A stretch of DNA of 49,388 nucleotides from a bacterium (GTDB lineage Bacteria; UBA9089; UBA9088; JAGUXG01). Where the stretch lies: assembly GCA_043798435.1 (NCBI GenBank), contig JAZDOR010000010.1, forward strand, positions 1-49,388, read 5' to 3'. How positions within the stretch are numbered: the first letter of the stretch is position 1; the number at the start of each line of letters is the position of its first letter. Positions 8,152 to 48,971 of the stretch are shown here, piece after piece. Below the pieces are notes generated by a model. That model worked only from the letters and a program-made list of their open reading frames with translations, was not told the DNA's origin and did not search any database. Position numbers and translations under genes: made by a program.

Positions 8152-8190
8152 CTTCCCTACCTATTATAAACCATCTGCCTAACTATCGCA

Positions 8191-8319
8191 ATCCCCTTTT
8201 CATTGGGTCAAAATACAATGTTCAATTATCAATCTTCAATTATCAATTCCCTCCATCTCTTAATTGATCATTGATAATTGTTAATTGATAATTCTCCTTC
8301 ATCCCCTTTTCATTGGGTC
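8191..8319. repeat. Second 19-mer direct repeat pair flanking a CAATTAT-word hairpin
   Basis: atccccttttcattgggtc at 8191-8209 and 8301-8319, both exact. The inner arms caattatcaatcttcaattatcaatt and aattgatcattgataattgttaattgataatt are largely complementary. Confidence 0.9.
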
Positions 8320-8471
8320 AGTGTTTCAACTCCTCTTCTATATACTGTAATACATCTTCTATGCTCAACTTAGGAGTTGGCTCTATCTTTTCTTCAACAT
8401 GCTTGTGATGAAGAAAGGTTTTAATCTCTTTGTAATCTGGGAAACTATCTTGCTCTGCCTGAGAAGGTCTA

Positions 8472-8771: not shown

Positions 8772-8839
8772 CTTACTTTATTCCTCCTGTTCTTACTATA
8801 CCCAAACAAATCAGGTTTGCAAAAATTGTGTTCGTTTAT

Positions 8840-8919
8840 GGTTCTGAGGTTCACGGTTCAAGGTTAAAGAATAAGAAGATTAACCGTGAATCTTGAACCC
8901 TTTAACCCCTGAACCTGAG
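8840..8919. repeat. Heptamer-word inverted repeat (GGTTCAA/GGTTCTG words)
   Basis: ggttctgaggttcacggttcaaggttaaag ... ttaaccgtgaatcttgaaccctttaacccctgaacctgag. Same word family as carB block 2 and as 47779-47865. Confidence 0.8.
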
Positions 8920-9275
8920 TAGTTACTTTTTTGTAAACCAATTTCTTTTCGGTATATTATCCACTTTACACCCTCCTTGATATCTTCACCAATCTTTTTT
9001 CCTAAGGCATTTATAGGATAATGGACATTTTCTCCATTTCTGAGACAGAATTATGGCTCCGGTTGATGGCTATACGAGTTGACGAAGAATATCTTCTCTT
9101 CTTTGGGTTCAAACTCTCCAAAAGAGAAGAATGCCTGGGGAGGAGAAAGAAAGGCTTAACAGAACATTTCCTATCACAGCTTAGATGAATCTTTCGTATC
9201 TTGCAGGAATTCTTCTCTGTCTCTAATTGGGTCAATTACCTAAACTCTATCTCCATCTCCTTTTCTTGCACTACC

Positions 9276-16330: not shown

Positions 16331-16367
16331 TTGTTCCTCCTTAAATGTAATCACTGCGATAGTGATA

Positions 16368-16558
16368 GTGTAAGAAAAGGGGATAAGGGGATTATTATAG
16401 AGAGATGGGGATAAAATTAAGAATTAAAAATGAATAATCTCCTTATCCCCCTTTTTACACTCTTGCTGTATAACCTGAACGGTTACTAAAAATAGCTATC
16501 AGCTTTCAGGTATTTTTATTGCCTGACTACTGATACCTGATACCTGAATGCTATTTAC
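16368..16558. repeat. Nested inverted-repeat element (GGGGATAAGG arms plus ACCTGAACGGTTAC terminus plus CTGATAC words)
   Basis: gtgtaagaaaaggggataagggga (16368-16391) against tccttatccccctttttacac (16440-16460). aacctgaacggttac lies at 16472-16486 and acctgaatgctatttac at 16541-16558. Confidence 0.8.
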
Positions 16559-16581: not shown

Positions 16582-17550
16582 TCAAGTCTGACAGATATAC
16601 CTTCTATCCTTTAAGTAGCCTACATAGTCAGAGACAGCATCAGAAAGGCTCAGGGGGGACTCGGTATAGCCTGCACCTCTAATCTTTGATATATCAGCCT
16701 CTGTGAAGTACTGGTATTGATCTTTTACCTCTTGTGGCATATCAATATATTCAATATCTGGCTCTATTTTTAAGGCATGAAAAAGGCTATGTGCCAAAGC
16801 ATTCCATGTCTCAGCACAGCCTGAACCAAGATTAAATATCCCGGATAAACCCAAATTTTCAAAGAAGAAGAGGGTCATCTTGACAGCATCTTTCACATAG
16901 AGAAAATCCCTCTTTTGCTCACCGTCTGCAATCCCCTCTCTATAAGACGAAAATAACCTGATTTTTCCTGTCTCTATTATCTGGCGGAATCCTCGCAAGA
17001 CCATACTCTGCATATTGCCTTTGTGATACTCATTTGGTCCAAATACATTAAAGTATTTCAGCCCAACTATCTTATCTAATAGGCATTCCTTCTTTGCCCA
17101 AAGGTCAAAAAGGTGCTTTGAGTAGCCGTATAGATTTAGTGGTCGCAGAAGGTGTAGCTTGCTTTCATCATCTGAAAATCCCAAACTTCCATCGCCATAA
17201 GTGGCTGCTGAGGAGGCATAAATAAACCTGATATTATGCAATAAGCAATGAACAGCAAGGGTTTTAGAGTATTCATAATTATTCTTAATAAGGTATTTTG
17301 CACAAGTAGCGGTAGTGTCAGAGCAGGCGCCCAAGTGGAATATAGCCTCTATTTTCTTGAAGTCACCCCTTCCTATCCTCTCTAAAAAATCATCCTTATC
17401 AATGTAGTCATAGAAGGCCAGACCTACTAAGTTTTTGTAGTTGCCGTTATCTAAGCTATCTACCACAAGGATTCTATCCTTTCCCCTTTGATTTAACTCC
17501 CAGATAAGAGAGCTTCCAATAAAACCTGCCCCACCTGTTATGATTAACAT
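16582..17550 (-). CDS. hldD: ADP-L-glycero-D-manno-heptose 6-epimerase
   Basis: MLIITGGAGFIGSSL Rossmann start, FHLGACSDTT, ASSAATYG, YGYSK and FNVFGPNE..KG, collinear with E. coli HldD/RfaD. Confidence 0.9.
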   Translation of the reverse strand: MLIITGGAGFIGSSLIWELNQRGKDRILVVDSLDNGNYKNLVGLAFYDYIDKDDFLERIGRGDFKKIEAIFHLGACSDTTATCAKYLIKNNYEYSKTLAVHCLLHNIRFIYASSAATYGDGSLGFSDDESKLHLLRPLNLYGYSKHLFDLWAKKECLLDKIVGLKYFNVFGPNEYHKGNMQSMVLRGFRQIIETGKIRLFSSYREGIADGEQKRDFLYVKDAVKMTLFFFENLGLSGIFNLGSGCAETWNALAHSLFHALKIEPDIEYIDMPQEVKDQYQYFTEADISKIRGAGYTESPLSLSDAVSDYVGYLKDRRYICQT

Positions 17551-17788: not shown

Positions 17789-17860
17789 CTGATACCTGAT
17801 ACCTTTTTTAGGTTTCAGGCTTCAGGTATCAGGTTTCAGGTATTCTATTGACCTGATACC
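17789..17860. repeat. CTGATAC heptamer-word hairpin
   Basis: ctgatacctgatacc ... ggtttcaggcttcaggtatcaggtttcaggtat ... cctgatacc. Confidence 0.8.
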
Positions 17861-24099: not shown

Positions 24100-24243
24100 G
24101 TTTTAACCTCCTTATTTAGTGTATTTAACGATAGAGTTCAGCGGCGGCGTTTACGCCATCCGCTACAACAATTTATTAGGCTTTTAATAGGTAACTGTCC
24201 CTTTTTTATTGTCAACATTTCTTTTGCAATTGACTGAATTTAT

Positions 24244-24520
24244 TGAAGTTATGTAAACTGTTTACTTGCTTTCGTTGTTTACTTGCTTTCGTTTTGAAGT
24301 TATGTAAACTGTTTACTTGCTTTCGTTTACTTGCTTTCGCTTTCTTTACTTGCTTTCGCTTTCGTAAACTGTTTACTTGCTTTCGTTTTTATGTAAACTG
24401 TTTACTTGCTTTTATACTTGCTTTTACTTGCTTTCGTTTACTTGCTTTCTATTTACTTGCTTTCTACTTGCTTTCGTTTACTTGCTTTCTTGAAGTTATG
24501 TAAACTGTTTACTTGCTTTC
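24244..24520. repeat. Irregular array of 14 ACTTGCTTT cores with a 30-nt higher-order unit
   Basis: Cores start at 24264, 24281, 24315, 24329, 24348, 24375, 24404, 24416, 24426, 24440, 24455, 24466, 24480 and 24511. tgaagttatgtaaactgtttacttgctttc recurs at 24244, 24295 and 24490, with a partial copy near 24390. Confidence 0.9.
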
Positions 24521-31783: not shown

Positions 31784-31827
31784 AATTTAGTAATAACGAT
31801 TAAGTCTTAAAATCACATACAGGTGTT

Positions 31828-31871
31828 CTCATTCTGACTCCTGTATTCTGAATTCTGTATTCTTGCTACCT
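31828..31871. repeat. 44-nt copy (43/44 identical) of the 5-prime flank of the four-helix-bundle cassette
   Basis: ctcattctgactcctgtattctgaattctgtAttcttgctacct, compared with 40766-40809 which has C at the capitalised position. Confidence 0.95.
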
Positions 31872-31877: not shown

Positions 31878-32792
31878 TTATGGTCTTGGAAGCAAACCAG
31901 CCTTTTCTACAATAACTGGCACAGCCTCTTCCCATTCTATAGCCATAATATGGACACCAGCGACACCCTCAATTTTCTTTAATCTTTCTATAGCCTCTAC
32001 ACATATTTTTATCCCTTCTTCTTTGGGATTGGAAGCCTCCTTTACCCTATTCATCAGTTCTTCTGGCACATTTACGCCAGCAACATTATTATTCATATAC
32101 TTAGCCATACCAAAGGACTTCAGCGGTATCAGACCAACCAAAAGATGAGCCTTTGTATCCAGCCCCATCTGCCTTACCTCTTTCATCCACTCCTCAAGTC
32201 TATCTATATCATAGATAGCCTGGGTCTGAATAAAGTCTGCACCTGCCTGTATCTTCTTCCTGAGCCTGAAAATCCTGATCTCGGTTGGGTCGGAGAATGG
32301 AGACTCAGCCGCACCAATGAACATTCTCGGTTCTACATCCTTAATCTCTTCTCCGCATATAAATTTTTTATCATTACCCATTCCTTTGACTGCTGCCACA
32401 AGCTGAATTGAATCAAGGTCAAAAACATTCTTTGCCTGCGGATGATTGCCAAACTTCTGGTGGTCTCCTGTCAGGCAGAGGATATTCCTTATTCCCAAAG
32501 CATACGCACCCAAAATATCAGACTGCATAGCAATCCTATTTCTATCGCGGGTGACCATTTGCATAATCGGCTCTAAGCCCAAGGAGACCAGAATAGAAGA
32601 TGCAGCTATAGAGCTCATCCTAACAATGGCTGTCTGATTGTCAGTAACATTGACCGCATCAACAAACCCTTTAAGAATCCCTGCCTTCTTTTCAATCACA
32701 GCTCTATCCGCATTCTTTGGGGGGCCAAGCTCAGAGGTAACCACAAAATTTCCAGACGATAAGAGTTTCTCTAAATTACTTCCTGATTTCAT
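31878..32792 (-). CDS. metF: Methylenetetrahydrofolate reductase, acetogen-type catalytic subunit
   Basis: FVVTSELGPPK, VNVTDNQ, MVTRDRNRIA and LCLTGDH motifs. Adjacent to metV. Confidence 0.88.
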   Translation of the reverse strand: MKSGSNLEKLLSSGNFVVTSELGPPKNADRAVIEKKAGILKGFVDAVNVTDNQTAIVRMSSIAASSILVSLGLEPIMQMVTRDRNRIAMQSDILGAYALGIRNILCLTGDHQKFGNHPQAKNVFDLDSIQLVAAVKGMGNDKKFICGEEIKDVEPRMFIGAAESPFSDPTEIRIFRLRKKIQAGADFIQTQAIYDIDRLEEWMKEVRQMGLDTKAHLLVGLIPLKSFGMAKYMNNNVAGVNVPEELMNRVKEASNPKEEGIKICVEAIERLKKIEGVAGVHIMAIEWEEAVPVIVEKAGLLPRP

Positions 32793-32806
32793 CTTTTTTT
32801 CCTCCT

Positions 32807-32966
32807 GTAAGTGTTTAATCTATCTATCAAAGAGTGTAAGAAGGGGGATAAGGAGATAATGGGGATATGGAGATTATTCATTTTTTAAGGGGATGGAGAT
32901 ACTTATATTATCCCCACATCCCCCTAATCCCTATATCTCCTTATCTCCTCACCTTTTCTTACACTA
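32807..32966. repeat. Nested inverted-repeat element filling the metV-metF spacer
   Basis: gtaagtgtttaatc ... gagtgtaagaagggggataaggagataatggggatatggagat ... atccccacatccccctaatccctatatctccttatctcctcaccttttcttacac. The right arm overlaps the metV stop. Confidence 0.85.
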
Positions 32967-33657
32967 CCGCAGCGATTACTTCCTTTTTGGTTATGGCCAC
33001 ATCTTCCCTAATTATCCTCCTTGGACCGCCATCCCTCCCGAAAGACCAGTCCTTTGGTGGTTTTATCTCAGCAAGGTTTTCCAGCTTTCCCAAAATCTTG
33101 AGCCTATCATAGATAAGCTGCCAGCCACAAGGGGTCTCTGGACCTACCTCACATTTACCATTATTTGAACCTCCGCAGGGTCCATTCAAAAGGCTCTTTG
33201 AGCAACGGGCTATGGGGCAGATGCCACCAAACTTATGCAATCCACAATCTCCACAAGCCCCGCAGGTCTCTACCCATACCCCCTGTTCCTCTGGCAATCC
33301 AATAAACTTTGTATTCAAGGCTGGATAGATTGGGATTTTCTCAAAGAATTGAGCCATAGCCTGAACACCTACCCCACAGCCCATTGAAAGTATAGCCTCT
33401 ACACCTTCTATCTTACCCTTCAATTCCTCAACAAACTCCCATTCACATTGACGCTGGATACAGGCTTCTGTAATCTCCGGCTCTTTTCCATCAAGCCTCA
33501 AAGCCATCCGTAGGCAAGAGCCTAATATTCCAACCTCCTTTTCACCCCCGGCCATACAAACAGTCACGCAAGTGCCGCAACCCACAACTAATATCTTCTG
33601 ACAATCCGCCACCATAGCCTTTATCTGGACAAGGGGCTTCTGCTGTGCAACTATCAT
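32959..33657 (-). CDS. metV: Methylene-THF reductase small (zinc-ribbon / Fe-S) subunit MetV-like
   Basis: Cys-rich: GCGTCVTVC, CGACGDCGLHKFGGICPIARCSKSLLNGPCGG, CEVGPETPCGW. Confidence 0.8.
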   Translation of the reverse strand: MIVAQQKPLVQIKAMVADCQKILVVGCGTCVTVCMAGGEKEVGILGSCLRMALRLDGKEPEITEACIQRQCEWEFVEELKGKIEGVEAILSMGCGVGVQAMAQFFEKIPIYPALNTKFIGLPEEQGVWVETCGACGDCGLHKFGGICPIARCSKSLLNGPCGGSNNGKCEVGPETPCGWQLIYDRLKILGKLENLAEIKPPKDWSFGRDGGPRRIIREDVAITKKEVIAAVV

Positions 33658-34253
33658 ATCTTTTCCTCCTTTCTGATAAATTTTAACAAACTTTCTACAT
33701 CACCGATAAAATGCTTAAATGAACTGTCGTTCTTTCCTGCTTCATAAAGATCCATTTCCTGAACAATCTCTTCTGCAAAATCAGGTGCTCCCAGAGGGGC
33801 AACTTTACCACTTTCTTTAATTGCATCATCAAAAAGATTTTTGTAATACCCCTTTTTACACTTAGCCCTTTTAACAGGATGTGTTTTTTTAGTCCCTAAT
33901 ACCTTATTCAGGGCAGAAGCATCCAGCATATACCATTTTTCAATATGTGGATTGGGAATAGCCAAAGCATATAAAGTTAAAGAATTTTCTCCAACAATCT
34001 TGGCTATCTTTTTTCTCATCTCCCTATATGGGTTACAGTTAGAATCAATAGCAACTATCAAAAATCCATCTAATAGACTACCTTTCATATCCCTAAGGAA
34101 GCTTTTAAGTTCAGTGAGAACAGAACCTTTTCCTCCGGAAGCGTTTCTGACAATATGGTCAATCTTTACATTTCGGCAAATCTTTTCTGTCAATGCCTTA
34201 ATAAAAGACTCCTGTGCAATATCTTCTAAAAAGTAGAATACTTTGGATTTCAT
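33654..34253 (-). CDS. DUF4276/Toprim-like partner of the ATPase (assignment tentative)
   Basis: 199 aa. N-terminal FYFLEDIAQESF has an acidic residue like the vEG.tE motif, and a later IVAIDSN acidic patch is present. ATGA overlaps occur at both ends (34250-34253 with the ATPase, 33654-33657 with metV). Confidence 0.45.
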   Translation of the reverse strand: MKSKVFYFLEDIAQESFIKALTEKICRNVKIDHIVRNASGGKGSVLTELKSFLRDMKGSLLDGFLIVAIDSNCNPYREMRKKIAKIVGENSLTLYALAIPNPHIEKWYMLDASALNKVLGTKKTHPVKRAKCKKGYYKNLFDDAIKESGKVAPLGAPDFAEEIVQEMDLYEAGKNDSSFKHFIGDVESLLKFIRKEEKI

Positions 34254-35575
34254 CCGCCGTAGTCTCCCCTTATAATCCTTTCTCCAATGCTCGGTTTTTC
34301 TAAAGCCTTTTCAATGTTACTCTGTTTAATGCTTGGTTCTTCTAAAGTCTTTTCAATGTTACTCTGCTTAAAAATTTGTGATTTATCAAACTGCCTGAAT
34401 GAGGTCGCATAGTCACTCTTTTCACAAACAATGATTTGTGAAGGTTCAAAGAAATCCGGAAAAAGGGTAGAATGGGAATTGATAAGAAATTGTGAGTCGC
34501 TCCGTCTGGCTGCATTCTGAAACAAGTCAGCAATAAGCTTCAGTCGTCTGGGATGAACACCATTTTCAGGTTCTTCATATCCTACAACAGAAGTAGGTTC
34601 TATAGGATTGGTAATTCCAAGTAAGGCTAATATCCTAAGTGTGCCCTCTGAAACTACCCTTGCCGAAAACCATCCCTCACCTTCACGAACCATAAGTAAA
34701 AGTCGCCCTGATTTAGGATTTCGTTCAATTCTTATCTCATCCACAGCAGGAATGATAGTCTTTAAAGATTTATTAAAAGAGTTGAATCGCTCTTCGTAAT
34801 GAGTGATTAAGGTATTATAGAAAGCAGAAAGGGAATCTCCAAAAGAACCAAGGTTTCGCACCTCTTTCAACTCGTTCTCTTCCCGCATTATGTCTGGTTC
34901 AAGGTAGTAAAATCTCCATCTGGAAAGCTCTCTTTGAAAGGCATTGATGTGGGGATAGTGGGGTAGATATAATGGTCTTGAGACAATAGTATAGTCCAGA
35001 CCAATGTCATTCTTGCGGGGAGCTGATTTACCTTCCATGCGGAGACGAATTGAGTCTTTGACAACCTCAATAAAAGGTTCTGGTCTCTGTCTTTCTGTGC
35101 CATCTTCACGAAGAGCAACCAACTTTTCTTCTCTAACTTGAAGATGTCCAGAGTCTGGTCGAATACCTATGGTGAGGTAATACCGCAAGAATTTATGAGT
35201 AATACGCCTTTTATCACTTTCTTTTGAGTCTTTTTTGGGCAGTCCTTCACGCATTTTTTGTATCTCTTTCTCAATACTCTCAACAACATCTTTTGAGAGT
35301 TCCACATCTATCTCCACAGAGAATGTAGCTATATCTTTTTTCATAACATCTTCAATGCCTGAGTCACAATAAAAGGCTTCAATGGGATCGCCCCTGTGTT
35401 CTTCAAAAGCCTCCTTCAGTGTTCTGGAGGTAACAATACGACTAACTAGTTTTAGCAAGTCAAATAGATTGCTTTTACCTGCGGCATTTGGACCAATAAT
35501 GATAGTCAATGGCTGTAAGCTAACTTCAATATCCTTCAGTGACTTGTATCCTTTTACCTTAACCCTGGTAATCAT
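34250..35575 (-). CDS. ABC/AAA15-AAA21-type ATPase (OLD/PARIS AriA/Septu PtuA-like fold)
   Basis: Walker A GPNAAGKSN, signature-like SEGTLRILALL, Walker B VVGYEEPENGVHP, and H-loop LINSHS. The start VKVKGYKSLKDIEVSL is typical of this clade. Confidence 0.85.
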   Translation of the reverse strand: MITRVKVKGYKSLKDIEVSLQPLTIIIGPNAAGKSNLFDLLKLVSRIVTSRTLKEAFEEHRGDPIEAFYCDSGIEDVMKKDIATFSVEIDVELSKDVVESIEKEIQKMREGLPKKDSKESDKRRITHKFLRYYLTIGIRPDSGHLQVREEKLVALREDGTERQRPEPFIEVVKDSIRLRMEGKSAPRKNDIGLDYTIVSRPLYLPHYPHINAFQRELSRWRFYYLEPDIMREENELKEVRNLGSFGDSLSAFYNTLITHYEERFNSFNKSLKTIIPAVDEIRIERNPKSGRLLLMVREGEGWFSARVVSEGTLRILALLGITNPIEPTSVVGYEEPENGVHPRRLKLIADLFQNAARRSDSQFLINSHSTLFPDFFEPSQIIVCEKSDYATSFRQFDKSQIFKQSNIEKTLEEPSIKQSNIEKALEKPSIGERIIRGDYGG

Positions 35576-36637: not shown

Positions 36638-36652
36638 TCTTTCACCTCCTTT

Positions 36653-36713
36653 AATCAGGTAATCGGTAACCGGTAATCAGGTAACCGATAACCGATTACC
36701 CGATTACCGATTT
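36653..36713. repeat. CGGTAAT-word hairpin between mvhD and the protease gene
   Basis: aatcagg taatcgg taaccgg taatcag gtaaccg ataaccg attaccc gattacc gattt. The left and right words are complementary. Same word as the carA tract. Confidence 0.85.
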
Positions 36714-37125
36714 ATATTTTCTTCCTCAATGGGTTTGGTCCCAATGCTCGTACTTTTTCTGTCATCTCCCGGGCTGCCTCAGCAAACTTTGGCCCCATAG
36801 AGGCACTCATATTATACATCTCCAGCCTCTCTCCATCAAGACCAATTTCAGTGAGCAGCTTTTTGGCTCTCTGGACCCTTCTCTTTGCCTTGATATTGCC
36901 GTCAGTGAAATGGCAGTTGCCCTCAAGACAACCAGCCACATACACGCCATCTGCCCCATCCTCAAAGGCTTTAAGCAGATAGATAATATCCACCTTGCCT
37001 GTGCAGGGCAGTTTAACTATCTTCACATTTGCTGGATAGTTAAGCCGCATAGAGCCAGCCAAATCAGCAGCCCCATAAGCACAGTAATGACAACAAAAAG
37101 CAACTATCTCTGGTTCAAACTCCAT
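36712..37125 (-). CDS. mvhD: MvhD-like (methyl-viologen-reducing hydrogenase delta subunit family) electron-transfer protein
   Basis: IVAFCCHYCAYGAADLAG, VKLPCTGKVD, GADGVYVAGCLEGNCHF. Confidence 0.85.
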   Translation of the reverse strand: MEFEPEIVAFCCHYCAYGAADLAGSMRLNYPANVKIVKLPCTGKVDIIYLLKAFEDGADGVYVAGCLEGNCHFTDGNIKAKRRVQRAKKLLTEIGLDGERLEMYNMSASMGPKFAEAAREMTEKVRALGPNPLRKKI

Positions 37126-37173: not shown

Positions 37174-37313
37174 GTAACCGTTCAGGTTATGTATCAGAAG
37201 TGTAAGAAGGGGGGGATAAGGAGATAATGGAGATAGAAGATATTATTATATTATCCCCCTATCCCCTTCCATAATCCCCACATCCCCTTTTCTTACACTA
37301 CCTGAATGCTTAC
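37174..37313. repeat. 140-bp MITE-like nested palindromic element with GTAACCGTTCAGGT/ACCTGAATGCTTAC termini
   Basis: The outer arms are at 37174-37187 and 37300-37313. The inner arms are gaagtgtaagaaggggggataaggagataatggagata and tatccccctatccccttccataatccccacatccccttttcttacac. Confidence 0.85.
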
Positions 37314-37381
37314 CTATAATTTCAACATATAAGATTAGTTAAAGTCAAACATTTTTTGTAAGGCTTCGCCAATTCCTATAT

Positions 37382-38548
37382 TTATCTACTGTAGATTCCT
37401 TTGTCAACAAGGAAGGTTATTGCCTTTGCCAGATATGAGCTTTTGAGCAGGATTGCCCCTTGTGGGCATAGCTCCTGACAGCAGTAGCAGCGGATACATT
37501 TAGCATCATTTATCTTTGCTTTTGCATCCTTTAGCATAAACGGAGTTCGGGATTCAGTTGAATGCTTTGTGCCTTTGTGCCTTTGTGCCTTTGTGCCTTC
37601 CATTATTTTTATAGCTTCTCTTGGACAGGTCTTTTCACAAACCCCACAGCCAATGCAGACCAGAGAGACAAAAGGCTTTGCTGTAAAGAAAGGCTTCAGG
37701 TATCTCCCAAATCTTCCCCAGGGGGCAACACCTTGTGGCAGTCGAAGGGGAGGGGATATAGGCACAACCTCATCACCAAGCCACTCACACCCATCAAATT
37801 TTGCTCTCTCTGAAAGACCAGGGACTATCTCAGGCTTCCATCCAATCAATCTGCAAGCTGCAAGGTCAGCTAAGATAGGATTATCGCTCACGATTATCCA
37901 GCCTATATCTCTAAGAATGCCTCCAGATGGACCATTTCCCTCCATGCCAACGATTCCATCCACTATAGTCAGCTTTGGCTGGACAACATCTGCAAGAGAA
38001 AAAAGCATACTTGCAAAATCCCCTATCTTTGGTAATGTTGAATGATACCCCAGCTTATCAAAGCCAGGGATAAGACCAAAGAGGTTCTTTACGCCGCAGC
38101 TTAAAATGGTGTATGAATGGGTCTTCAGCTTTGGGATATTGACTACAGAATCTACATCACTTATAAGATTTATCAGCCTGAATCCCTTGCCATCTCTAAA
38201 AAAGCTCTTATATCCCGTGTCATAATTCAGATTGACTCCCAAACCTTCCATCTGGGTGATTCGGTAGAGTTTCTTGAGGGATTCTTTTGTGTAAGGGATT
38301 GCCATGCCAAGGCTATCAGCAAGATGGGGTCTGCCCCCGTTAGAATTAATCAAGTCAGATACAGCTTTGACCACGGCAGGATGTGTGGTTATTCCCTTCT
38401 CTGGAGGGTAGTAACCAAGAAGGTTTGGTTTGAGAAGAGTCTTTCCCTTTAGAGCATCTATTCCGCCTATAAGCTCTATCCCTCTCTTTACTGCCGCAAA
38501 TACCTTCTCCTCATTATAACTATTACACCTTATAGTCGCAACCTTCAT
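37382..38548 (-). CDS. DUF362-domain protein with a C-terminal 2x[4Fe-4S] ferredoxin domain
   Basis: N-terminal MKVATIRCNSY..LLKPNL and TH..T.L..GVKN are DUF362-like. The clusters CIGCGVCEKTCP and CIRCYCCQELCP are separated by an atypically long repeat-encoded linker. Confidence 0.75.
   Translation of the reverse strand: MKVATIRCNSYNEEKVFAAVKRGIELIGGIDALKGKTLLKPNLLGYYPPEKGITTHPAVVKAVSDLINSNGGRPHLADSLGMAIPYTKESLKKLYRITQMEGLGVNLNYDTGYKSFFRDGKGFRLINLISDVDSVVNIPKLKTHSYTILSCGVKNLFGLIPGFDKLGYHSTLPKIGDFASMLFSLADVVQPKLTIVDGIVGMEGNGPSGGILRDIGWIIVSDNPILADLAACRLIGWKPEIVPGLSERAKFDGCEWLGDEVVPISPPLRLPQGVAPWGRFGRYLKPFFTAKPFVSLVCIGCGVCEKTCPREAIKIMEGTKAQRHKGTKHSTESRTPFMLKDAKAKINDAKCIRCYCCQELCPQGAILLKSSYLAKAITFLVDKGIYSR
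37563..37597. repeat. Octamer tandem repeat (GCCTTTGT x4) inside the ferredoxin domain
   Basis: tgctttgt gcctttgt gcctttgt gcctttgt gcc, translated as KAQRHKGTKHS. Same CACAAAGG words as the intergenic arms at 48875-48941. Confidence 0.9.
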
Positions 38549-38606
38549 TAGATGAATCTTTATTAGCTTATAGCTTATAGCTATCTATAGTCTATCTAAA
38601 ATTTTC

Positions 38607-38771
38607 GTAAGCGTTCAGGTAGTATAAGAAAAAGGGATATGGGGAAGGTTAATAGAAGTCAGAATTCAGGAGTCATGAATTAGAATACAGGAGTCAGAAT
38701 ATTCTTAATTCTGGATTCTGTATTCTGTATTCTGTATTCTCTCTCGTTTAATACATAGCCTGAACGGTTAC
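38607..38771. repeat. 165-bp nested palindromic element with GTAAGCGTTCAGGT/CCTGAACGGTTAC termini enclosing an empty four-helix-cassette scar
   Basis: The termini are at 38607-38620 and 38759-38771. The inner agaatacaggagtcagaat (38682-38700) is the exact reverse complement of attctgactcctgtattct at 40769-40787 and 31831-31849. Confidence 0.85.
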
Positions 38772-38785: not shown

Positions 38786-38816
38786 AAAAAAGGGGACCTG
38801 GGTGGTCCCCTTTTTA
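38786..38816 (-). terminator. Rho-independent (bidirectional) terminator after the porin gene
   Basis: aaaaa aggggacc tgggt ggtcccct ttttt: an 8-bp GC-rich stem with a 5-nt loop and A/T runs on both sides. Confidence 0.8.
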
Positions 38817-38833: not shown

Positions 38834-40192
38834 TTAGAACTTGGTTACGAGCTGGCACTTGAGCATTGAGGCTGAGTCTTGCATTGTGGTTAGAGATGCA
38901 TCGCCTGGGCTAAATCTGGCATAGGTGAGGTCAATATTGGTCTTGTCGTTGTACTTGTAACCGCAGGTAAGGTCAATCTCACTGCCGATGTCATCCTTTG
39001 CACCAGATGCAACCTTAGCCGCTGTAAGCTTTGTGTAGCCAAAGCCAAGTGTTACACCCTCAATAGCATCAGGAGAGATGGATGCGTTCAGGTTTAGAGC
39101 CTTTACATTTCCAGTTACAGAAGGCTTCAATACTCCTTCTACAGCCATTGCTGAAAAGTAGTTGTAGTTAGATACTATCCCTGTGAATTTCTCATTTTTA
39201 TTGGTGGTAATATCATCACCCGACATACTGAGATAGCTTCCTTCAACAGCTACGGCACCAAGACTGGCCAACTCTGTCTTATAGCCACCACCTATCCTCA
39301 GGGCTGAAGCATCTCTCTTTATCTCTTTCATACTAAATGTTCCTGGTGTTGTTAAAGTTCCGCTCTGCATAAAATCAGGTGTAACATAGTTACCTGACTG
39401 CATAGCATACTCGAAAAACCAGTTGAGAGTTGAAGCAACTTCCATTGAACCTTCCACTTTTATGCCGAGCACATTCTTTTTATCAATATATGCTTCCACT
39501 GGATTGTCTGTAATGCTTCTTAAATAGTAACCGGTAATATTGCCAACTACAGGAAGTGGATAGGATGCAAGCAAACCCTGAATCTTGGCGTCTGTTGTGG
39601 CAGTGGCGAGAGTATAGGTATCACTTCCAATAAAAGTAGCACCCATATTAACAATTATGCTTTCATTTTCCAGAGCACATATCCCGGTTACAGTCAGGTC
39701 ATTGTAAGTTGCCTTGGCTACCTTAGCATTGATGGAGTCGGTATAAAGCACAAGCTCTCTATAGATAGTGCCAATCCCCTGTCTGCCGAGGGTAAGGTTG
39801 ATGTCAGCAGGTAGTGTATCACCGAGGATATTGTCAATAGTCAGGTATGCGTGCCTTACTTGTGTCGCCCCTTCAATAGTTGTAAGGTTTGGTCCATTTG
39901 CCCCAGCATTTCCCCACAAGCTATCTCCATACTGAAGATTAATGTAAGCAGTTATCCCGTCAGACAACTTAGAGTTCATATTCAGCCTGACCCTTGTCTT
40001 TCCTATGCTATCCTCATCTGCATTTGCTGGTACTGTTCCTGTCCCAGTATTCTTGAAATCCGTTGTGTTATTCGTCTTGACACCCTTTGCCCTGATCTCC
40101 CCCGTTACATTTACATCTGGCATCTTTATGCCTGCCAGAACTGGTGTGGCAAGTAATGCCACAATTCCTGAAAAGAAGATTATCTTCTTCAT
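38834..40192 (-). CDS. Outer-membrane beta-barrel porin-like protein
   Basis: Signal peptide MKKIIFFSGIVALLATPVLAG, alternating beta-strand pattern, and a terminal ...QLVTKF aromatic residue. Confidence 0.65.
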   Translation of the reverse strand: MKKIIFFSGIVALLATPVLAGIKMPDVNVTGEIRAKGVKTNNTTDFKNTGTGTVPANADEDSIGKTRVRLNMNSKLSDGITAYINLQYGDSLWGNAGANGPNLTTIEGATQVRHAYLTIDNILGDTLPADINLTLGRQGIGTIYRELVLYTDSINAKVAKATYNDLTVTGICALENESIIVNMGATFIGSDTYTLATATTDAKIQGLLASYPLPVVGNITGYYLRSITDNPVEAYIDKKNVLGIKVEGSMEVASTLNWFFEYAMQSGNYVTPDFMQSGTLTTPGTFSMKEIKRDASALRIGGGYKTELASLGAVAVEGSYLSMSGDDITTNKNEKFTGIVSNYNYFSAMAVEGVLKPSVTGNVKALNLNASISPDAIEGVTLGFGYTKLTAAKVASGAKDDIGSEIDLTCGYKYNDKTNIDLTYARFSPGDASLTTMQDSASMLKCQLVTKF

Positions 40193-40391
40193 TTAACTCC
40201 TCCTTATTTTAGATTGCCTATCTTTGAAGCCAAAGGCTTTCCATTAGATTAGGCTTCCTTATATCTCTTATATATTAACTCCGGCCTTAAATATTCCTCA
40301 CCTCCTTGGTGGCATTTTTGGAGCTTGCTAATTAAGATAACATTATCTTATACTTGTTTTGTATCTTTGTCAAGATAATTCTGTAACTATT

Positions 40392-40425
40392 CAGAATACA
40401 GAATTCAGGAGTCAGAATCCAGAAT
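40392..40425. repeat. 3-prime flank of the four-helix-bundle cassette (heptamer words)
   Basis: cagaatacagaattcaggagtcagaatccagaat. It encodes the last 6 aa of the protein and is an approximate inverted copy of 40769-40800. Confidence 0.85.
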
Positions 40426-40770
40426 AGCCCCAGAGTAAGATTCTAATAATTTGCTGACTTCTTCGAGTAGGAGCAATAGTTTTGAAGAATCACCATACTC
40501 CAAATCATTAGCCAGGATTAAGTAATAACGAGACTCTTCTAATGACCCTTGAGCTATATTTAAGTAGCGAACCTTGTCCGCCCTGCCTTTTTTCTTAAAT
40601 CCCTCGGCAATATTTGCGGGAATTGAGGCTGCCGATCTTCGAAATTGAGATGTCAAACCATACATTTCCTCTTTAGGAAACTTTCTTGTAAAGATATAAA
40701 TATTCAGAACAAACTGATGGGCTTTTTGCCACACAATCAAATCTTGAAAACTGCGTGCAGGTTCTCTCAT
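40405..40770 (-). CDS. Four-helix-bundle protein (23S rRNA intervening-sequence protein family)
   Basis: FQDLIVWQKAHQFVLNIY, SQFRRSAASIPANIAEG and AQGSLEESRYYLILANDLEY are hallmark motifs. Confidence 0.85.
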   Translation of the reverse strand: MREPARSFQDLIVWQKAHQFVLNIYIFTRKFPKEEMYGLTSQFRRSAASIPANIAEGFKKKGRADKVRYLNIAQGSLEESRYYLILANDLEYGDSSKLLLLLEEVSKLLESYSGAILDSDS

Positions 40771-40809
40771 TCTGACTCCTGTATTCTGAATTCTGTCTTC
40801 TTGCTACCT
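40766..40809. repeat. 5-prime flank of the four-helix-bundle cassette
   Basis: ctcattctgactcctgtattctgaattctgtcttcttgctacct. It contains the gene's ATG and is 43/44 identical to 31828-31871. Confidence 0.95.
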
Positions 40810-42464: not shown

Positions 42465-43265
42465 TTAGCGTGTTTCGTAGTCTCCTTTTGCAGCGACCAG
42501 GACTTCTTCCTGTATCTTCTGAAGCTGGGATGAAATGGTAGCATCTATTATCCCAAACCCTGTCTGAACCTTGCATCCACCCTGTTCAATGGAAGGGTCT
42601 TCTCTAATATCTATCCTTTTGCCTCCTGAACTCTTCAAAATCCTTTCCTTCCATTCTGAAGCCACCTCAAAATCAGCAAGATTTACTAAGACCGTTATAC
42701 TTTCCTCGGAAAGCCCCCTTTTTATCGCCATCTCTATGTTGGACAAGACAACCTTTTTATTGCCTTTTATCTCCTCCTTTATTATCTTTTCAGCAATCAT
42801 TATGGCCAGCCCAACTACAACCTCCGCCTCTGCCTTCTTTGTTGCCTCTTCATATACCTTGGATAATGAGGAGAGCGTATTAGTAAAACCAGTAATAAGC
42901 CTGTTCGCCTCTATCTCTCCCTTTCTCTTTCCATCCGCCCTTCCCTCATCAAACCCTTTTTTGAAGGCTGAATCAGTTATCTCGGAAACCTTCTTCTTTG
43001 CCTCTTCTTCTGCCTTCCTGATTATATCTTCACACCTCTTTTCCGCTTCCTTTCTTACATAGCCTTCTACATCAGAAAGCACCCTGCTCCTTTCTTCTAT
43101 CTGATTATTTATCTCTAAAAGCCCTTGTTCTGCTACCCGTATCTTATTTTCAAGCCTCTCAATCAGATTCCGTCCTTCTCCTAAACCAGAAAATGCCTTT
43201 GGGTCTATGACTACATCCGAACTTAGAACAGGCTGCTTATAAACGCTATTCAATGATTGACTCAC
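42465..43265 (-). CDS. fliH: Flagellar assembly protein FliH-like
   Basis: Lies downstream of fliG. Long charged coiled coil, then KKGFDEGRADGKRKG and LAIMIAEKIIKEEI. GTG start inside repeat unit A. Confidence 0.65.
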   Translation of the reverse strand: MSQSLNSVYKQPVLSSDVVIDPKAFSGLGEGRNLIERLENKIRVAEQGLLEINNQIEERSRVLSDVEGYVRKEAEKRCEDIIRKAEEEAKKKVSEITDSAFKKGFDEGRADGKRKGEIEANRLITGFTNTLSSLSKVYEEATKKAEAEVVVGLAIMIAEKIIKEEIKGNKKVVLSNIEMAIKRGLSEESITVLVNLADFEVASEWKERILKSSGGKRIDIREDPSIEQGGCKVQTGFGIIDATISSQLQKIQEEVLVAAKGDYETR

Positions 43266-43682
43266 CTCCTTTCCAGTAGCGACTAATCATAATCTCGTCC
43301 TGTTCCTCTAATTGCCTAACCACAACTATTATCTTCTGTTGAGCCTCTTCTACTTCGGAGAGTCTCATCGGTCCAAGGCAGGAAATCTCCTTATTCAATG
43401 ATTGACTCACCCCCTTTGCCACCCCGACTAATCATAATCTCACCCTGCTCTTCTAATTGTCGCACTACAACTATTATCTTCTGTTGAGCCTCTTCTACTT
43501 CGGAGAGTCTCATCGGTCCAAGGCAGGAAATCTCCTTATTCAATGATTGACTCACCCCCTTTTCCACCCCGACTGATCATAATCTCACCCTGCTCCTCTA
43601 ATTGCCTAACCACAACTATTATCTTCTGTTGAGCCTCTTCTACCTCGGAGAGTCTCATCGGTCCAAGATAGGAAATCTCCTC
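43246..43682. repeat. Tandem triplication (3 x 145 bp) of the fliG 3-prime end / fliH start junction
   Basis: The anchor attcaatgattgactcac occurs at 43248, 43393 and 43538. The units are more than 90% identical by eye. Confidence 0.95.
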
Positions 43683-44552
43683 TTTGAGCATCTCAGCCGC
43701 CCTTTTGGGCATATTCTTATAGATTAAGCCACTTATCGTCCCGGTAACACTCTTCATTGCCCTGGCTAAGTCCTTTGTGTCAACCTCCCTGAGAATCCTT
43801 TGCAAAGCCCTATCATCAAGCTTTGTCAGGTCATCAAAGGTAAAGAGCCTCTTTCTTACCTCTTCTGCCAGGTCTGGCTCTGTCTCGCTTAAGGCATCAA
43901 CTATGGTTTTTTCTGTCTCCCTGTCAACTGCATGGAGTATATTCACTAAAGACTCAACCCCTCCTACAGCGACAGTCTTCGTGGTTACAACCTCCTTCTC
44001 AAACTTTTCTCTCAGAGAACTTTCTACTGAGCTGACAAACTCTGGCGAGACATTCTTCATTCCGGCAAGCCTCTTGGCTACATCACCCCTTTTATCTTCA
44101 GGAATATTAAGAAGGACATTTGAGGCTTTTTGTGGGTCCAAGTAACTCAGGATAACAGCTATTGTTTGAGGATGTTCCTTTCCCAAGAAGTTTGCCAGAT
44201 AAAATACATCTGCCTTCTTCATAAAATCAAAGGGTCGCATCTTCAAGGTTTCTATGGAGCGATTTATTATCTCCTCTGCCCGGGCGGGACCTAATGCCCT
44301 TCCCAATACCTCTCTGGCATACTCTATCCCACCCTTACTGATAAATTCCTGAGCCATAAGAAGCTCCTTTAGCTCTGTAATTATCTGTTGGCTCTCCTCT
44401 CGCTCAAGCTTTGAAATTCTGGTTATCTCTAAGGTGAGCTGGTCAACCTCTTCCTCATTCAGGTACTTAAATATACCCGCAGATATTTCTGTTCCCATAG
44501 CCACCAAGAGCCTGGCTGCTTTCTGTGGTCCTGTTAAAGTTACCTTAGCCAT
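43536..44552 (-). CDS. fliG: Flagellar motor switch protein FliG
   Basis: LTGPQKAARLLVAMG, MRPFDF and EVDTKDLARAMK are present, with C-terminal LGPMRLSEVEEAQQKII. Confidence 0.92.
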   Translation of the reverse strand: MAKVTLTGPQKAARLLVAMGTEISAGIFKYLNEEEVDQLTLEITRISKLEREESQQIITELKELLMAQEFISKGGIEYAREVLGRALGPARAEEIINRSIETLKMRPFDFMKKADVFYLANFLGKEHPQTIAVILSYLDPQKASNVLLNIPEDKRGDVAKRLAGMKNVSPEFVSSVESSLREKFEKEVVTTKTVAVGGVESLVNILHAVDRETEKTIVDALSETEPDLAEEVRKRLFTFDDLTKLDDRALQRILREVDTKDLARAMKSVTGTISGLIYKNMPKRAAEMLKEEISYLGPMRLSEVEEAQQKIIVVVRQLEEQGEIMISRGGKGGESIIE

Positions 44553-44565
44553 CTTATTTTTCCTC

Positions 44566-44776
44566 GTAAGTGTTTAGGTAGTATAAGATAAGGAGAAATG
44601 GGGAAAGAGGAGAATTGAAGAAATAGGACGCAGATTAACGCTGATTTACAAGATAGGAATTAAATAAGAATCTGCGCTAATCCTGAAAAATCCTGAAAAT
44701 CTGCGTTCTAATTCTTCCCCATCTTCCCCTTTTCTCCTTTCTTACACATATTAAAATATAGCCGTTGAACGGTTAC
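44566..44776. repeat. 211-bp nested palindromic element (GTAAGTGTTTAGGT ... GTTGAACGGTTAC)
   Basis: The outer arms are at 44566-44579 and 44762-44776. The middle arms are agtataagataaggagaaatggggaaagagg and cttccccatcttccccttttctcctttcttacac. The inner part uses CGCAGAT/ATCTGCG words. Confidence 0.8.
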
Positions 44777-44949
44777 CTTTCTTCTTCTATCTCCATAAAG
44801 ATAGACCGTATCCTTTCATCTGGAAAGGTATCCGCCTCATTAGCCAATATCCTCTTTTCATCTTCAGTCAACCACCTGATTACCTCTCTCTGCTCTTCTT
44901 TATCCAGCAGACTCAAGGCTAAAAGCGATTTTTTTGCACCTTTCTTCAT
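44773..44949 (-). CDS. Small hypothetical protein in a repeat-bounded cassette between fliF and fliG
   Basis: 58 aa from ATG 44949 (the track ORF starts at a GTG inside the repeat arm). No family recognised. Confidence 0.35.
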   Translation of the reverse strand: MKKGAKKSLLALSLLDKEEQREVIRWLTEDEKRILANEADTFPDERIRSIFMEIEEER

Positions 44950-44965
44950 TTCGCATAATAATTTT

Positions 44966-45037
44966 GACACAGATTAACACTGATTTCCACTGATAAAATT
45001 TAAAAATTATCTGTGTTCATCTGTGTAAATCAGTGTC
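44966..45037. repeat. Inverted copy of the element at 23-94
   Basis: gacacagattaacactgatttccactgataa ... ttatctgtgttcatctgtgtaaatcagtgtc. The arms are 28-30/31 identical to the arms of 23-94 in reverse orientation. Confidence 0.85.
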
Positions 45038-45070
45038 TAAAATTCTCTTCAATTTGCAATTCACGATTCC

Positions 45071-46684
45071 TTACCCCTCTTCAGCCAGCCATCCCCTGAT
45101 AATATTGGCAACAAGTGCAGGCTTCCTTCTTGCTGTCTGCAAGGCAGCCATCTCCTCCTCTGAAAGCACACCCTCTGTAGCAAGCTGACTGGTTATGGGA
45201 ATCTCCGAGTCTGTCATCTCCCTGTCTAATCTTTCTGCCCCAGCCTTTCTTTTCTCATCTTCTTTCTTTTTGGCTGCCATTACCGCAGAAAAGATGAAGA
45301 TTCCAAGCAAAAGCAATAGTCCGCCGCCCACTCCAACAGTAGCAATGGTCGTTACCAATTCTTTGCGAGCAACCACTTTTTCTCTCTCTTCTTCAAGCCA
45401 CTCCTGGGTTCTGTCAAACTGGACATTCTCAACCTCAACAATATATTCCCTTTCTATATATTCCCTGCCCTTTTCAGCACCTATTGCCGCCCAGATCATC
45501 TTTCGGTATTTTTCCATCTCATCATCTGTCCTTGGATGATAAACAGGCTTTCCTTTCTCTTTCTTTATCTTTCCCTTTTCATCCGTCTCATAGCTTCCAT
45601 CTATCAAGGCTGCAACTGATATCTTAGAGATAGCTGGGGCTTTGGCGATGTTCATCTCTTCTTTATCCACATAGTAGTTAATCCTGCTCTCATTTTTATT
45701 ATAGTCAACAGGTCCACCTGCCTTAGCCATCTCTTTATAGCCTGGAATCTGACTCTCAACGCCTGGAGCACCCTCTGGCTTTGCACCCTCTCCCTTAAAG
45801 CTCTCCTGAACCTTCTCTTCACTTATCTTCAGTTGTTCAAAGCCCGGGGTTGAGTACTTCTCTTTTTTAATCTGTTGTCTGTCAAAGTCCATTTCATACT
45901 TGACAATAACCTCAATCTTATCCTGACCAAGGGCTTTACCTAATTTTTCTCTTATTTTTTTCTCTAATCTCTTTGCCTCATCCCTCTGAAGGGTTACCTG
46001 TTTTGCACTCATAGCCTCTTCTGTCGCTTCGTCTAAATCTTCAGAGAGCATATTCCCTCTGTTATCAATCAGGGTAACATTCTCAGGCTTCAAGCCTTCT
46101 ACAGCATAAGAGACAAGGTTGACTATTCCTTTTACCTGATTTTTTTCTAAGGTAGCAAAGGGGGACATTGTCAGTTTGATAGAACAGGTGACAGGCTTTT
46201 CTTCCTCTATAAACAGCTCTTTTTTTGGAAGGACAAGGAGAACCCTGGCATCTTCTATTCCTTCAATTGAGGCAATCGTTCTGGCGAGCTCACCCTGTAA
46301 GGCACGGAGGTAGTTTATCCTCCGCTCATAATCCGTCATAGTTATCTTGGTAGCATCAAATAGCTCCCATCCCTTGATACCACCTGATGGAGCGAGCTTT
46401 TCTGAGGCAAGTCTAATTCTCAGTCTATCACGGCTGGAAATAGGAACCTTGATGGTTGTTCCAGAAATTTTATATGGTTGTTTCCAATCATCCAGCTTAG
46501 TGGCGATCCTTCCTGCTTCCTGTGGGTCAATATTGGTATAAAGGTCGGAATATTCTGCCTGGCTCACAAATTTTACCAAAAGAAACAGGGCAACAACTGT
46601 AGCTACTCCACAGCCAATAACAGCTACCCTTTGACCCATTGTCCATCTTCCCCACAAAGCCTTTATCTGGTCTAAAAATCCCAT
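45071..46684 (-). CDS. fliF: Flagellar M-ring protein FliF
   Basis: N-terminal TM segment, YSDLY..IDPQEAGRIATKLD, RRINYLRALQGELARTI, a second TM near the C-terminus, and a FliG-binding tail. Confidence 0.92.
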   Translation of the reverse strand: MGFLDQIKALWGRWTMGQRVAVIGCGVATVVALFLLVKFVSQAEYSDLYTNIDPQEAGRIATKLDDWKQPYKISGTTIKVPISSRDRLRIRLASEKLAPSGGIKGWELFDATKITMTDYERRINYLRALQGELARTIASIEGIEDARVLLVLPKKELFIEEEKPVTCSIKLTMSPFATLEKNQVKGIVNLVSYAVEGLKPENVTLIDNRGNMLSEDLDEATEEAMSAKQVTLQRDEAKRLEKKIREKLGKALGQDKIEVIVKYEMDFDRQQIKKEKYSTPGFEQLKISEEKVQESFKGEGAKPEGAPGVESQIPGYKEMAKAGGPVDYNKNESRINYYVDKEEMNIAKAPAISKISVAALIDGSYETDEKGKIKKEKGKPVYHPRTDDEMEKYRKMIWAAIGAEKGREYIEREYIVEVENVQFDRTQEWLEEEREKVVARKELVTTIATVGVGGGLLLLLGIFIFSAVMAAKKKEDEKRKAGAERLDREMTDSEIPITSQLATEGVLSEEEMAALQTARRKPALVANIIRGWLAEEG

Positions 46685-48838: not shown

Positions 48839-48941
48839 GTAAGCGTTCAGGTTATAGTATCTTACATAAATAATCACACAAAGACACAAAGGTCACAAAG
48901 GGGAATATTATAATCTTTGTGTTCTTTGTGGCTCTGTGTGA
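48839..48941. repeat. Repeat element: GTAAGCGTTCAGGT terminus plus a CACAAAG-word inverted repeat
   Basis: gtaagcgttcaggt at 48839-48852, then cacacaaagacacaaaggtcacaaagg against ctttgtgttctttgtggctctgtgtga. Confidence 0.8.
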
Positions 48942-48971
48942 GAAAATTTGTGCGAAGATTTATGGAGTTAA

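Follow-up and report, generated by a model that had tools for sequence, protein, structure and literature searches.

Bacterial MITEs (miniature transposable elements with inverted repeats), which are under about 600 bp in length, include Correia/NEMIS of Neisseria, ERIC/IRU of enterobacteria, RUP of Streptococcus and Nezha of cyanobacteria. They are small, non-coding, intergenic and multicopy, with inverted repeats and duplications; they are often co-transcribed as hairpins and can create or alter gene ends. Correia, ERIC and REP elements that are transcribed together with genes influence how the mRNA is processed and how stable it is. The cyanobacteria Nostoc and Anabaena carry STRR heptamer repeats, with small dispersed repeats nested within them. 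Here, we analyzed a stretch of 49,388 nt (the window; contig JAZDOR010000010.1, assembly GCA_043798435.1) from an uncultivated, Desantisbacteria-like bacterium of the GTDB lineage UBA9089, in which short palindromic elements with GTAA ends lie between genes and two copies bracket a DUF362 gene. The original prediction, made from the letters of the window, preferred RNA-level elements and named non-autonomous DNA transposons as the other option. Four lines of evidence strongly support the latter, namely target-site duplications of 8 bp, orthologous sites without an element, a high number of copies and a preference for intergenic positions: the elements are MITEs, non-autonomous DNA transposons that form a new family within a well-known class of selfish DNA.

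Inverted repeats of IS66-family insertion sequences (IS) are 20–30 bp long and start GTAAGCG, and the direct repeats are 8 bp (PMC11946415). The repeat of ISPsko1 begins GTAAGCGTCCGG (PMC12888890), and ISDge4, which belongs to the ISBst12 group with a single open reading frame (ORF), has the repeats GTAACTGCTCAGCA and GTGACTACTCAGCA and an 8-bp direct repeat (PMC12898284). The ends of the window family read GTAA(G/C)CGTTCAGGT; the terminus GTAACCGTTCAGGT is identical to GTAACTGCTCAGCA of ISDge4 at 10 of 14 positions, and GTAACTACTCAGGT (8913–8926) is identical to its other repeat at 11 of 14. Very likely, a DDE transposase whose gene lies elsewhere moves these MITEs; the IS66 family is its most likely source, and the single-ORF ISBst12 group within it a plausible one. 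The elements are best read as IS66-type MITEs, an assignment that draws only on end sequence and duplication length, and we infer the identity of the transposase and the transposition chemistry.

Results

A family of short palindromic elements

The window contains five complete related elements of 140–211 bp (E1–E5), together with fragments. Their common ends are GTAA(C/G)CGTTCAGG; each of the five starts with GTAA(C/G)(C/T)GTT(C/T)AGG or a variant and has the reverse complement at the other end. The copies, and the duplications assigned to E3 and E4, are as follows.

37174..37313, plus strand (left to right): E1, 140-bp MITE copy in the gap from the mvhD start (37125) to the DUF362 stop (37382); termini GTAACCGTTCAGGT ... 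CCTGAATGCTTAC
38607..38771, minus strand (inverted relative to E1): E2, MITE copy of 165 bp between the porin-gene terminator and the DUF362 start (38548); termini GTAAGCGTTCAGGT ... CCTGAACGGTTAC
44566..44776, minus strand: E3, MITE copy of 211 bp between a conserved 58-amino-acid ORF (44773–44949, minus strand) and fliG
44558..44565, no strand: E3 target-site duplication, fliG-proximal copy, minus-strand GAGGAAAA, matching the other copy at 6 of 8 positions
44777..44784, no strand: E3 target-site duplication, distal copy, minus-strand GAAGAAAG
32807..32979, plus strand: E4, MITE copy of 173 bp at the metV/metF junction
32799..32806, no strand: E4 target-site duplication, metF-proximal copy, minus-strand AGGAGGAA
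32980..32987, no strand: E4 target-site duplication, metV-side copy, minus-strand AAAAGGAA
16347..16486, minus strand: E5, 140-bp MITE copy that separates an epimerase gene (16582–17550) from a GGDEF/GAF gene (start near 16340)
48839..48961, plus strand: truncated copy with the canonical left terminus GTAAGCGTTCAGGTTAT, then a hairpin of CACAAAG words; no recognizable right terminus
8834..8926, minus strand: possible degenerate relative (weak assignment) with terminus GTAACTACTCAGGT at 8913–8926, then a hairpin of heptamer words

The family proposed in the original prediction is real. Its terminus GTAASCGTTCAGGT has 18 matches at up to three mismatches in the window against 3.6 expected, an approximately 5-fold enrichment, and none of 100 shuffles reached 18; matches that are exact or have one mismatch lie at 16473(-), 37174(+), 37300(-), 38607(+), 38758(-) and 48839(+). 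Within the outer ends lies an inner inverted pair, (A)GTGTAAGAA(A/G)GGGGAT ... ATCCCCTTTTCTTACAC(T), and innermost a variable, self-complementary core of 7–8-nt words, so that the proposed nesting and short-word core are both present. No ORF lies wholly inside any element, in line with the noted absence of coding capacity. Folding, which had been suggested as a check, gave long hairpins for all five elements on both strands, with minimum free energies of -38 to -70 kcal/mol and z-scores of -5 to -8 relative to dinucleotide shuffles (E1, -54/-57 kcal/mol; E2, z -5 to -7; E5, z -6 to -8).

Across 21 aligned copies, the ends are conserved and slightly asymmetric. The terminal inverted repeats GTAASCGTTCAGG ... 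CCTGAACGSTTAC keep pairs 1–12 with 197–214 in 19–21 of the 21 copies, and the two ends are not equivalent: the left one has a spacer of 11–13 nt (TATnnATCAnA) between the outer and inner repeats, which the right one lacks. E1 is recognized by nhmmer at both its left (E=9e-15) and right (E=1e-11) ends and is also present in a 99%-identical strain (contigs L149, L153 and L155). The core of E2 consists of CAGAATA/TATTCTG heptamers, with TRF arrays at 38654–38740, and that of E3 contains a nested palindromic module, GACGCAGATTAAC.

Several boundaries had to be revised. E4, given originally as 32807–32966, does have the variant left end ascribed to it (GTAAGTGTTTAATC); its true end is 32979, and its right terminus is also a variant (GTAATCGCTGCGG, or GTAATCGCTGCGGTAGTG in minus-strand reading). 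The final six codons of the metV ORF, with its stop, fall within this right end, and the whole of E4 is identical in a 98% strain (contig L152). The supposed half copy at 16368–16486 proved to be the full 140-bp E5, with one canonical and one variant (left, GTAATCACTGCG) terminus (nhmmer E=7e-15). The other supposed half copy, at 48839–48852, is indeed incomplete and extends to 48961. The region around the possible degenerate relative (8792–8955) is 93% identical to a paralog in metagenome contig L164.

Target-site duplications, copy number and site preference

The terminus GTAASCGTTCAGGTWRT was scanned in one genome per species, and the counts for these genomes hold among the matches listed. 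Multiple hits were obtained in the metagenome-assembled genomes (MAGs) MAG210 (6), Modern_marine.mb.176 (5), Bin_21_1 (5) and Anaerolineales SuakinDeep (4), with others in Yes70-25, Yes70-08, Yes70-31 and Poribacteria B30T1B8. The elements that the terminus delimits there are short, at 122–325 bp, and over the window, the other MAGs and the metagenome the length is about 120–330 bp. Perfect 8-bp direct repeats flank 12 of the 16 complete elements in these species-representative genomes, and 14 of the 16 agree at 7 or more of the 8 positions; examples are ATATGCTT, CCAAGGAA, ACAAAAAC, CGAAAACT, TCTGATTC and GAAAAGGG. Among 29 complete elements on groundwater metagenome contigs, the 8-bp duplication is perfect in 13, and in 18 at least 7 of the positions agree. 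At like spacings in the same DNA, chance would give 8/8 at a rate of 5e-5 and at least 7/8 at 8e-4. The target-site duplications sought in the original prediction are thus present.

The family is also repeated at many loci and favors the gaps between genes. An exact 24-mer end, GTAASCGTTCAGGTAGTGTAAGAA, occurs on 54 metagenome contigs, 52 of them from one JGI sample, which gives at least 52 loci. Insertions are intergenic in 40 of 42 cases: with the element and one duplication copy removed, only 2 of the 42 reconstructed empty sites fall in a long open frame, compared with 54% of random positions in the same loci. One of these two is E4, where the reconstruction fuses metV to metF. A scan of viral contigs for the terminus returned 26 single matches with no family features, which were taken as chance.

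E2, E3 and E4 have 90–95% identical paralogs in the metagenome. A paralog in L164 shares 94% identity with the core of E2, E3 has a 90%-identical paralog in L178, and the interior of E4 is about 95% identical to those of L169, L159 and L207, all with canonical termini; the E4-like copy in L169 combines canonical ends with a perfect duplication, ATTAATTC. From such paralogs and from empty sites, we infer the mobility of the five copies in the window.

Empty sites and effects on host genes

Empty sites, the second feature sought in relatives, were found for E3 and E4. The MAG Yes70-25, whose FliG and MvhD are 93% and 92% identical to those of the window, lacks E3 at fliF–fliG and E4 at metV–metF. 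In its contig L004, the small ORF between fliF and fliG ends GAAGAGGAAAGATAAAAAATG and fliG follows, with the element absent; the counterpart of this junction in the window reads GAAGAAGAAAG[GTAACCG...CACTTAC]GAGGAAAAATAAGATG. By this comparison, E3 is an insertion that duplicated 8 bp of a GAGGAAAG-like target. Its terminal GTAA supplies the stop codon of the 58-amino-acid ORF at 44773–44949, and the fliG-proximal copy of the duplication now serves as the fliG Shine-Dalgarno region.

At the second site, metV and metF of Yes70-25 (L154) overlap (GATAATGAG) with no element between them, and the ancestral site reads CAAGGAGGAGAGATAATG. In the window, E4 sits between the two genes and the end of MetV is replaced by VIAAVV*. 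The flanks of E4, TTCCTCCT and TTCCTTTT, match at 6 of 8 positions and are explained by an 8-bp duplication of an AGGAGGA-like target, with the duplicated AGGAGGAA left as the metF Shine-Dalgarno sequence or ribosome-binding site.

In the mechanism that we propose, the transposase would recognize the conserved 13–14-bp ends, and the element would enter a new site through an 8-bp staggered cut, the repair of which would produce the 8-bp target-site duplication. The insertion of E3 donated a stop codon to the small ORF and duplicated the fliG ribosome-binding site. Insertion of E4 replaced the C-terminus of MetV, broke the metV–metF overlap and duplicated the metF ribosome-binding site. Operon transcripts probably gain stable hairpins from E1, E3, E4 and E5. 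These effects on host genes are by-products of insertion.

Interior words, nesting and variant ends

The interior is a fold-back hairpin in which purine-rich 7–8-nt words (GGGGATA/AGGAGAT) occupy one arm and their complements the other. Complementarity between the arms is 62–68% in the Desantisbacteria-like family, against 22–38% in some other same-ended copies. Close copies differ by whole words on one arm, as in L109, which is two heptamers longer than L091, and this pattern indicates slippage. The CAGAATA/TATTCTG arrays in the core of E2 resemble those at 2253–2690, 31831, 40392 and 40769, and the core of E3 aligns to solo 80-nt palindromes at 19–98 and 44962–45041; the nested palindromes are therefore partly one small palindromic module inside another element. 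The interior changes by word slippage and takes up other small palindromic modules at its center. The solo 80-nt palindromes themselves are built of 10-nt words (ACACAGATTA / ACACTGATTT), are 95% complementary to each other and lack GTAA ends; a 94%-identical copy is present in metagenome contig L193.

Despite its nearly unchanged interior, E4 differs from its paralogs by about 12 changes in about 42 nt of its ends. The CTGCGG variant of the terminus is found again in E5, in three copies from the metagenome and in the E2 of a strain (L149). The variant ends look like the outcome of exchange between subfamilies rather than of random decay. A functional covariation at position 5 of the two ends (C against G) was considered and set aside as being a subfamily signal, because this position tracks other left-end differences and the copies of MAG210 and Bin_21_1 are C/C.

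Several contigs of 98–99% identical strains follow the window's sequence as far as some position within an element and differ beyond it: L149 in E2, L152 (1–130) in E1, L209 in E5, and L166. The break in L152 falls at the apex of the E1 hairpin, the E2 terminus in L149 has CTGCGG instead of TTCAGG, L209 holds the E5 locus with a different distal half, and L166 diverges exactly at the 48839 terminus. These differences inside E1, E2, E5 and the 48839 fragment may reflect true recombination or chimeric metagenome assembly at repeats.

Host genes and other repeats in the window

The genes flanking the elements all lie on the minus strand, and the names originally given to them were borne out by Pfam.

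36712..37125, minus strand: MvhD/FlpD (Pfam)
37382..38548, minus strand: DUF362+Fer4 (Pfam)
38834..40192, minus strand: porin-like (Pfam)
31878..32792, minus strand: MTHFR, metF (Pfam)
32959..33657, minus strand: MetV, DUF5981 (Pfam)
43536..44552, minus strand: FliG (Pfam)
45071..46684, minus strand: FliF (Pfam)
38787..38815, no strand: GC-rich terminator-like hairpin that ends the porin-like gene and separates it from E2 and DUF362; not part of a MITE

Proteins of MAGs that bear the label Candidatus Desantisbacteria or simply "bacterium" share 89–93% identity with FliG and MvhD. Bin_21_1, which is labelled Nitrospira, is in fact a relative, with a carB of 76–78% nucleotide identity to that of the window. 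The placement of the elements within polycistronic mRNAs, as originally described, is plausible for E1, E3, E4 and E5, which lie between co-directional genes with no terminator between; it does not hold for E2, which probably lies in a 5' leader or promoter region because it is just downstream of the terminator-like hairpin.

The GC content of the window is 40.6%, and tandem heptanucleotide arrays abound in it, for the most part between genes. Further intergenic arrays lie at 6561–8325, 16530–16547, 17789–17841 and 36652–36712, often as inverted pairs, with the heptamers AATCGGT, AATCTCG, TAATTGA, CTGATAC, TTTCAGG and GGTAACC. Two genes contain arrays in frame. The carB ORF (178–3933, minus strand) has a net in-frame insertion of 504 nt (168 amino acids) at 1952–2494 that consists entirely of tandem heptamer arrays (TCGGGGA x11, TCAAGGT x31, TTCTGTA x27, CCTGACC x6). 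It translates to 7-residue repeats inside the oligomerization domain of the carbamoyl-phosphate synthase large subunit, and in the carB of a relative (L058) the parts flanking the insertion are only 38 nt apart. At 37500–37593, the DUF362 gene has a net in-frame insertion of about 72 nt between its ferredoxin cysteine motifs, made of words of 8 and 10 nt (CTTTGTGC x4.4, TTTAGCATCC x3.8); its protein has 388 amino acids, against 365 in homologs of 68–75% identity.

A gene for a "23S rRNA-intervening sequence protein" of 121 amino acids (40405–40770, minus strand; PF05635, E=5.5e-37) is bracketed by inverted CAGAATA heptamer arrays (40389–40801), and a 63-nt stretch at 40747–40809 recurs at 31809–31871 (87% identical), where it adjoins an apparent truncated small ORF. 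At 43247–43681, a 145-nt unit matching the 3' end of fliG stands in three tandem copies of about 90% identity; Yes70-25 has a duplicated fliH region instead (L004 3260–5519). Between mvhD and metV (33654–35575), the window and a 98% strain have extra genes, including a 441-amino-acid ATPase of AAA_15/AAA_23 type and a 199-amino-acid ORF, which are absent from Yes70-25 (L154 3139–3806) and may form an inserted defense-like or mobile cassette in the metVF/mvhD cluster. In addition, a 20-nt motif, AATCCCCTTTTCATTGGGTC, occurs four times at 7236–8319, and a non-coding gap at 24230–24520 holds dense direct repeats with the core GTAAACTGTTTACTTGCTTTC and periods of 14–51 nt, a pattern that resembles an iteron or an array of protein-binding sites.

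Discussion

The assignment to IS66 is consistent with both features used for it. Nearly all ends read GTAAGCGTTCAGG or GTAACCGTTCAGG, as expected of IS66 ends, and the direct target repeat is of the 8-bp length of that family; for the ISBst12 group, the end pattern used for comparison was GTAAC/GTGAC...TCAG. A query with the Escherichia coli IS66 TnpB matched plasmids at 100% and led to an IS66 element with TnpC; this annotated element (L156, 2266–4969) has GTAAGCG at both ends. We know of no other IS family with 8-bp duplications (IS6, ISL3, IS256, IS1595, ISAs1) that has GTAA ends. Plasmid pO157, examined for an IS66 example, contained none, and a literature search for the exact terminus sequence returned only an unrelated primer-like match.

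Several observations weigh against this assignment or against the mobility of the copies at hand. About half of the ends read GTAACCG, not the canonical GTAAGCG. Within approximately 1.3 Mb of loci examined, neither TnpB nor TnpC of the Escherichia coli IS66 element produced a tblastn match, a transposase gene bounded by these ends was not encountered, and the ORFs adjoining unpaired ends were those of housekeeping genes, with no transposase. The duplications around the window's own copies have decayed, with 4–6 of 8 positions matching (E1, for example, lies between TATAAATT and CTATAATT). Strong interior self-complementarity is moreover unneeded for transposition and unexplained by a MITE model alone. 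The absence of the partner is weak evidence because contigs tend to break at repeats and elements and the genome matches are only those listed. A search for an autonomous partner, defined as inverted termini 1–4 kb apart enclosing long ORFs, produced candidates in L124, L033, L091, L117, L042 and L100 that were rejected, as they encode an LPG synthase, an MFS transporter, a Mur ligase, an FG-GAP protein, a 2-oxoacid dehydrogenase and similar proteins.

The preference for RNA-level elements in the original prediction was not sustained. Functional RNA hairpins, selected within operon transcripts as RNase III sites, 3'-end stabilizers or segmenters comparable to rRNA intervening sequences and mobile only secondarily, would suit the position of E1, E3, E4 and E5 between co-directional genes and the very stable hairpins (z -5 to -8) that their transcripts would form. 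However, compensatory changes between copies, for which a check had been suggested, occur in 0 of 27 alignable consensus pairs in a 21-copy alignment analyzed by RNAalifold (covariation term -0.06 kcal/mol); only these outer 27 pairs, which are almost invariant, could be tested, the interiors being too variable to align. The orientation relative to the transcribed strand is mixed, with E1 and E4 pointing one way and E2, E3 and E5 the other. In relatives, the same operon junctions stand without elements and metV and metF even overlap, E2 lies behind the terminator-like hairpin, and the interiors of other MITEs that share these ends are not palindromic. A scan of the whole window with Rfam at gathering thresholds and for tRNAs returned no match. 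The compensatory pairs, fixed orientation and orthologous conservation of a structured cis-regulatory RNA are therefore all lacking, and we regard selected RNA hairpins as distinctly unlikely; nothing points to selection on RNA structure, and a new class of RNA regulation is not supported. As a by-product of insertion, co-transcription of E1, E3, E4 and E5 as RNA hairpins is plausible. These four are unlikely to act as terminators because none ends in a U-run.

The bracketing of DUF362 by two copies, as originally noted, is correct, and E1 and E2 are inverted around the gene. The unit E1–DUF362–E2 (37174–38771) could act, or have acted, as a composite transposon that brought DUF362 upstream of mvhD: canonical ends face outward on both sides (GTAACCGTTCAGGT at 37174, GTAACCGTTCAGGC at 38771), with 81% complementarity along 37 nt, the other end type faces inward on both, the closest DUF362 homologs in relatives (72–75% identical) have other contexts, and mvhD of Yes70-25 has neither DUF362 nor the porin-like gene upstream. 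Nevertheless, the 8-bp flanks of the pair mismatch (TATAAATT versus AAAAATTG), the homologs may be paralogous and not orthologous, the 1.6-kb unit as a whole was not seen a second time, and two independent insertions in adjacent AT-rich gaps are expected at five copies per 49 kb. Composite transposition is accordingly possible but unsupported, and we hold it to be improbable. Even less can be said for REP/REPIN-type palindromes moved by RAYT (IS200/IS605-like Y1) or for IS200/IS605-derived palindrome-associated elements. The elements are short, intergenic, hairpin-forming and highly repeated, as REP and REPIN are, but single-strand Y1 transposition leaves no target-site duplication, whereas precise 8-bp duplications are present here; the ends are true terminal inverted repeats that start GTAA rather than GTAG-headed REP, and no RAYT-like or Y1 transposase gene was found among the window ORFs scanned. 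This origin is extremely unlikely.

For these IS66-type MITEs, a wider scope can be considered. Short elements delimited by the 13–14-nt end have interiors that are unrelated to one another and that agree in composition with the respective host: GC content is 60–63% in the Anaerolineales MAG, 48% in Poribacteria, 31% in another MAG and 37–42% in Desantisbacteria-like MAGs. The Anaerolineales, Poribacteria and 31%-GC copies carry perfect 8-bp duplications. The end is thus the conserved part, and the palindromic interior belongs to the Desantisbacteria-like family only. The same end with unrelated interiors across 31–63% GC is as expected if a widespread transposase reads the ends. A bolder and rather unlikely proposal is that the end GTAA(C/G)CGTTCAGG(T) defines a phylum-spanning MITE superfamily driven by a transposase, ISBst12-like or other, that is unusually strict in recognizing its ends. 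If so, the Desantisbacteria-like elements and the free heptamer arrays would be major agents of operon change, donating stop codons, duplicating ribosome-binding sites, breaking translational coupling, providing recombination junctions between strains and inserting in frame into essential genes.

Recognition of these elements has practical consequences for annotation. They explain the fragmentation of MAGs in this lineage, where many contigs end inside an element, as well as differences in gene ends among close strains and the 140–210-bp hairpin spacers in operons such as metVF and fliFG. The elements are a ready marker for strain typing, and their ends provide a concrete sequence with which to seek the responsible IS66/ISBst12-type transposase. 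Where such genomes contain long hairpins between cistrons, a test for target-site duplications and empty sites should come first.

Comparison with known systems

Each of the closest known systems shares some features with these elements and lacks others. Like IS66/ISBst12 elements, such as ISDge4 of Deinococcus geothermalis, they have ends of the form GTAA(G/C)CG and an 8-bp duplication; IS66 elements are 1.5–2.7 kb long and carry a DDE_Tnp_IS66 (TnpC) transposase, with or without TnpA and TnpB, whereas the present ones measure 120–330 bp and have no transposase gene. REP/REPIN-RAYT systems are similar in their abundant intergenic hairpins, but REPINs have neither a target-site duplication nor GTAA ends and depend on Y1, and the present elements do not qualify as REPINs. 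With STRR repeats they share a genome littered with mostly intergenic heptamer arrays and small repeats inside other repeats. The host phylum differs, and here the arrays form the mirror-image arms of a transposon bounded by inverted repeats and also occur in frame inside carB and DUF362. Finally, the elements resemble Correia, ERIC, RUP and Nezha in size, non-coding state, possession of terminal repeats and duplications, and copy number. They differ from these in end sequence and duplication length (Correia duplicates TA), in an interior of 7–8-nt word arrays that accepts nested palindromic modules, and in a 13–14-nt end that occurs in MAGs of very different GC content.

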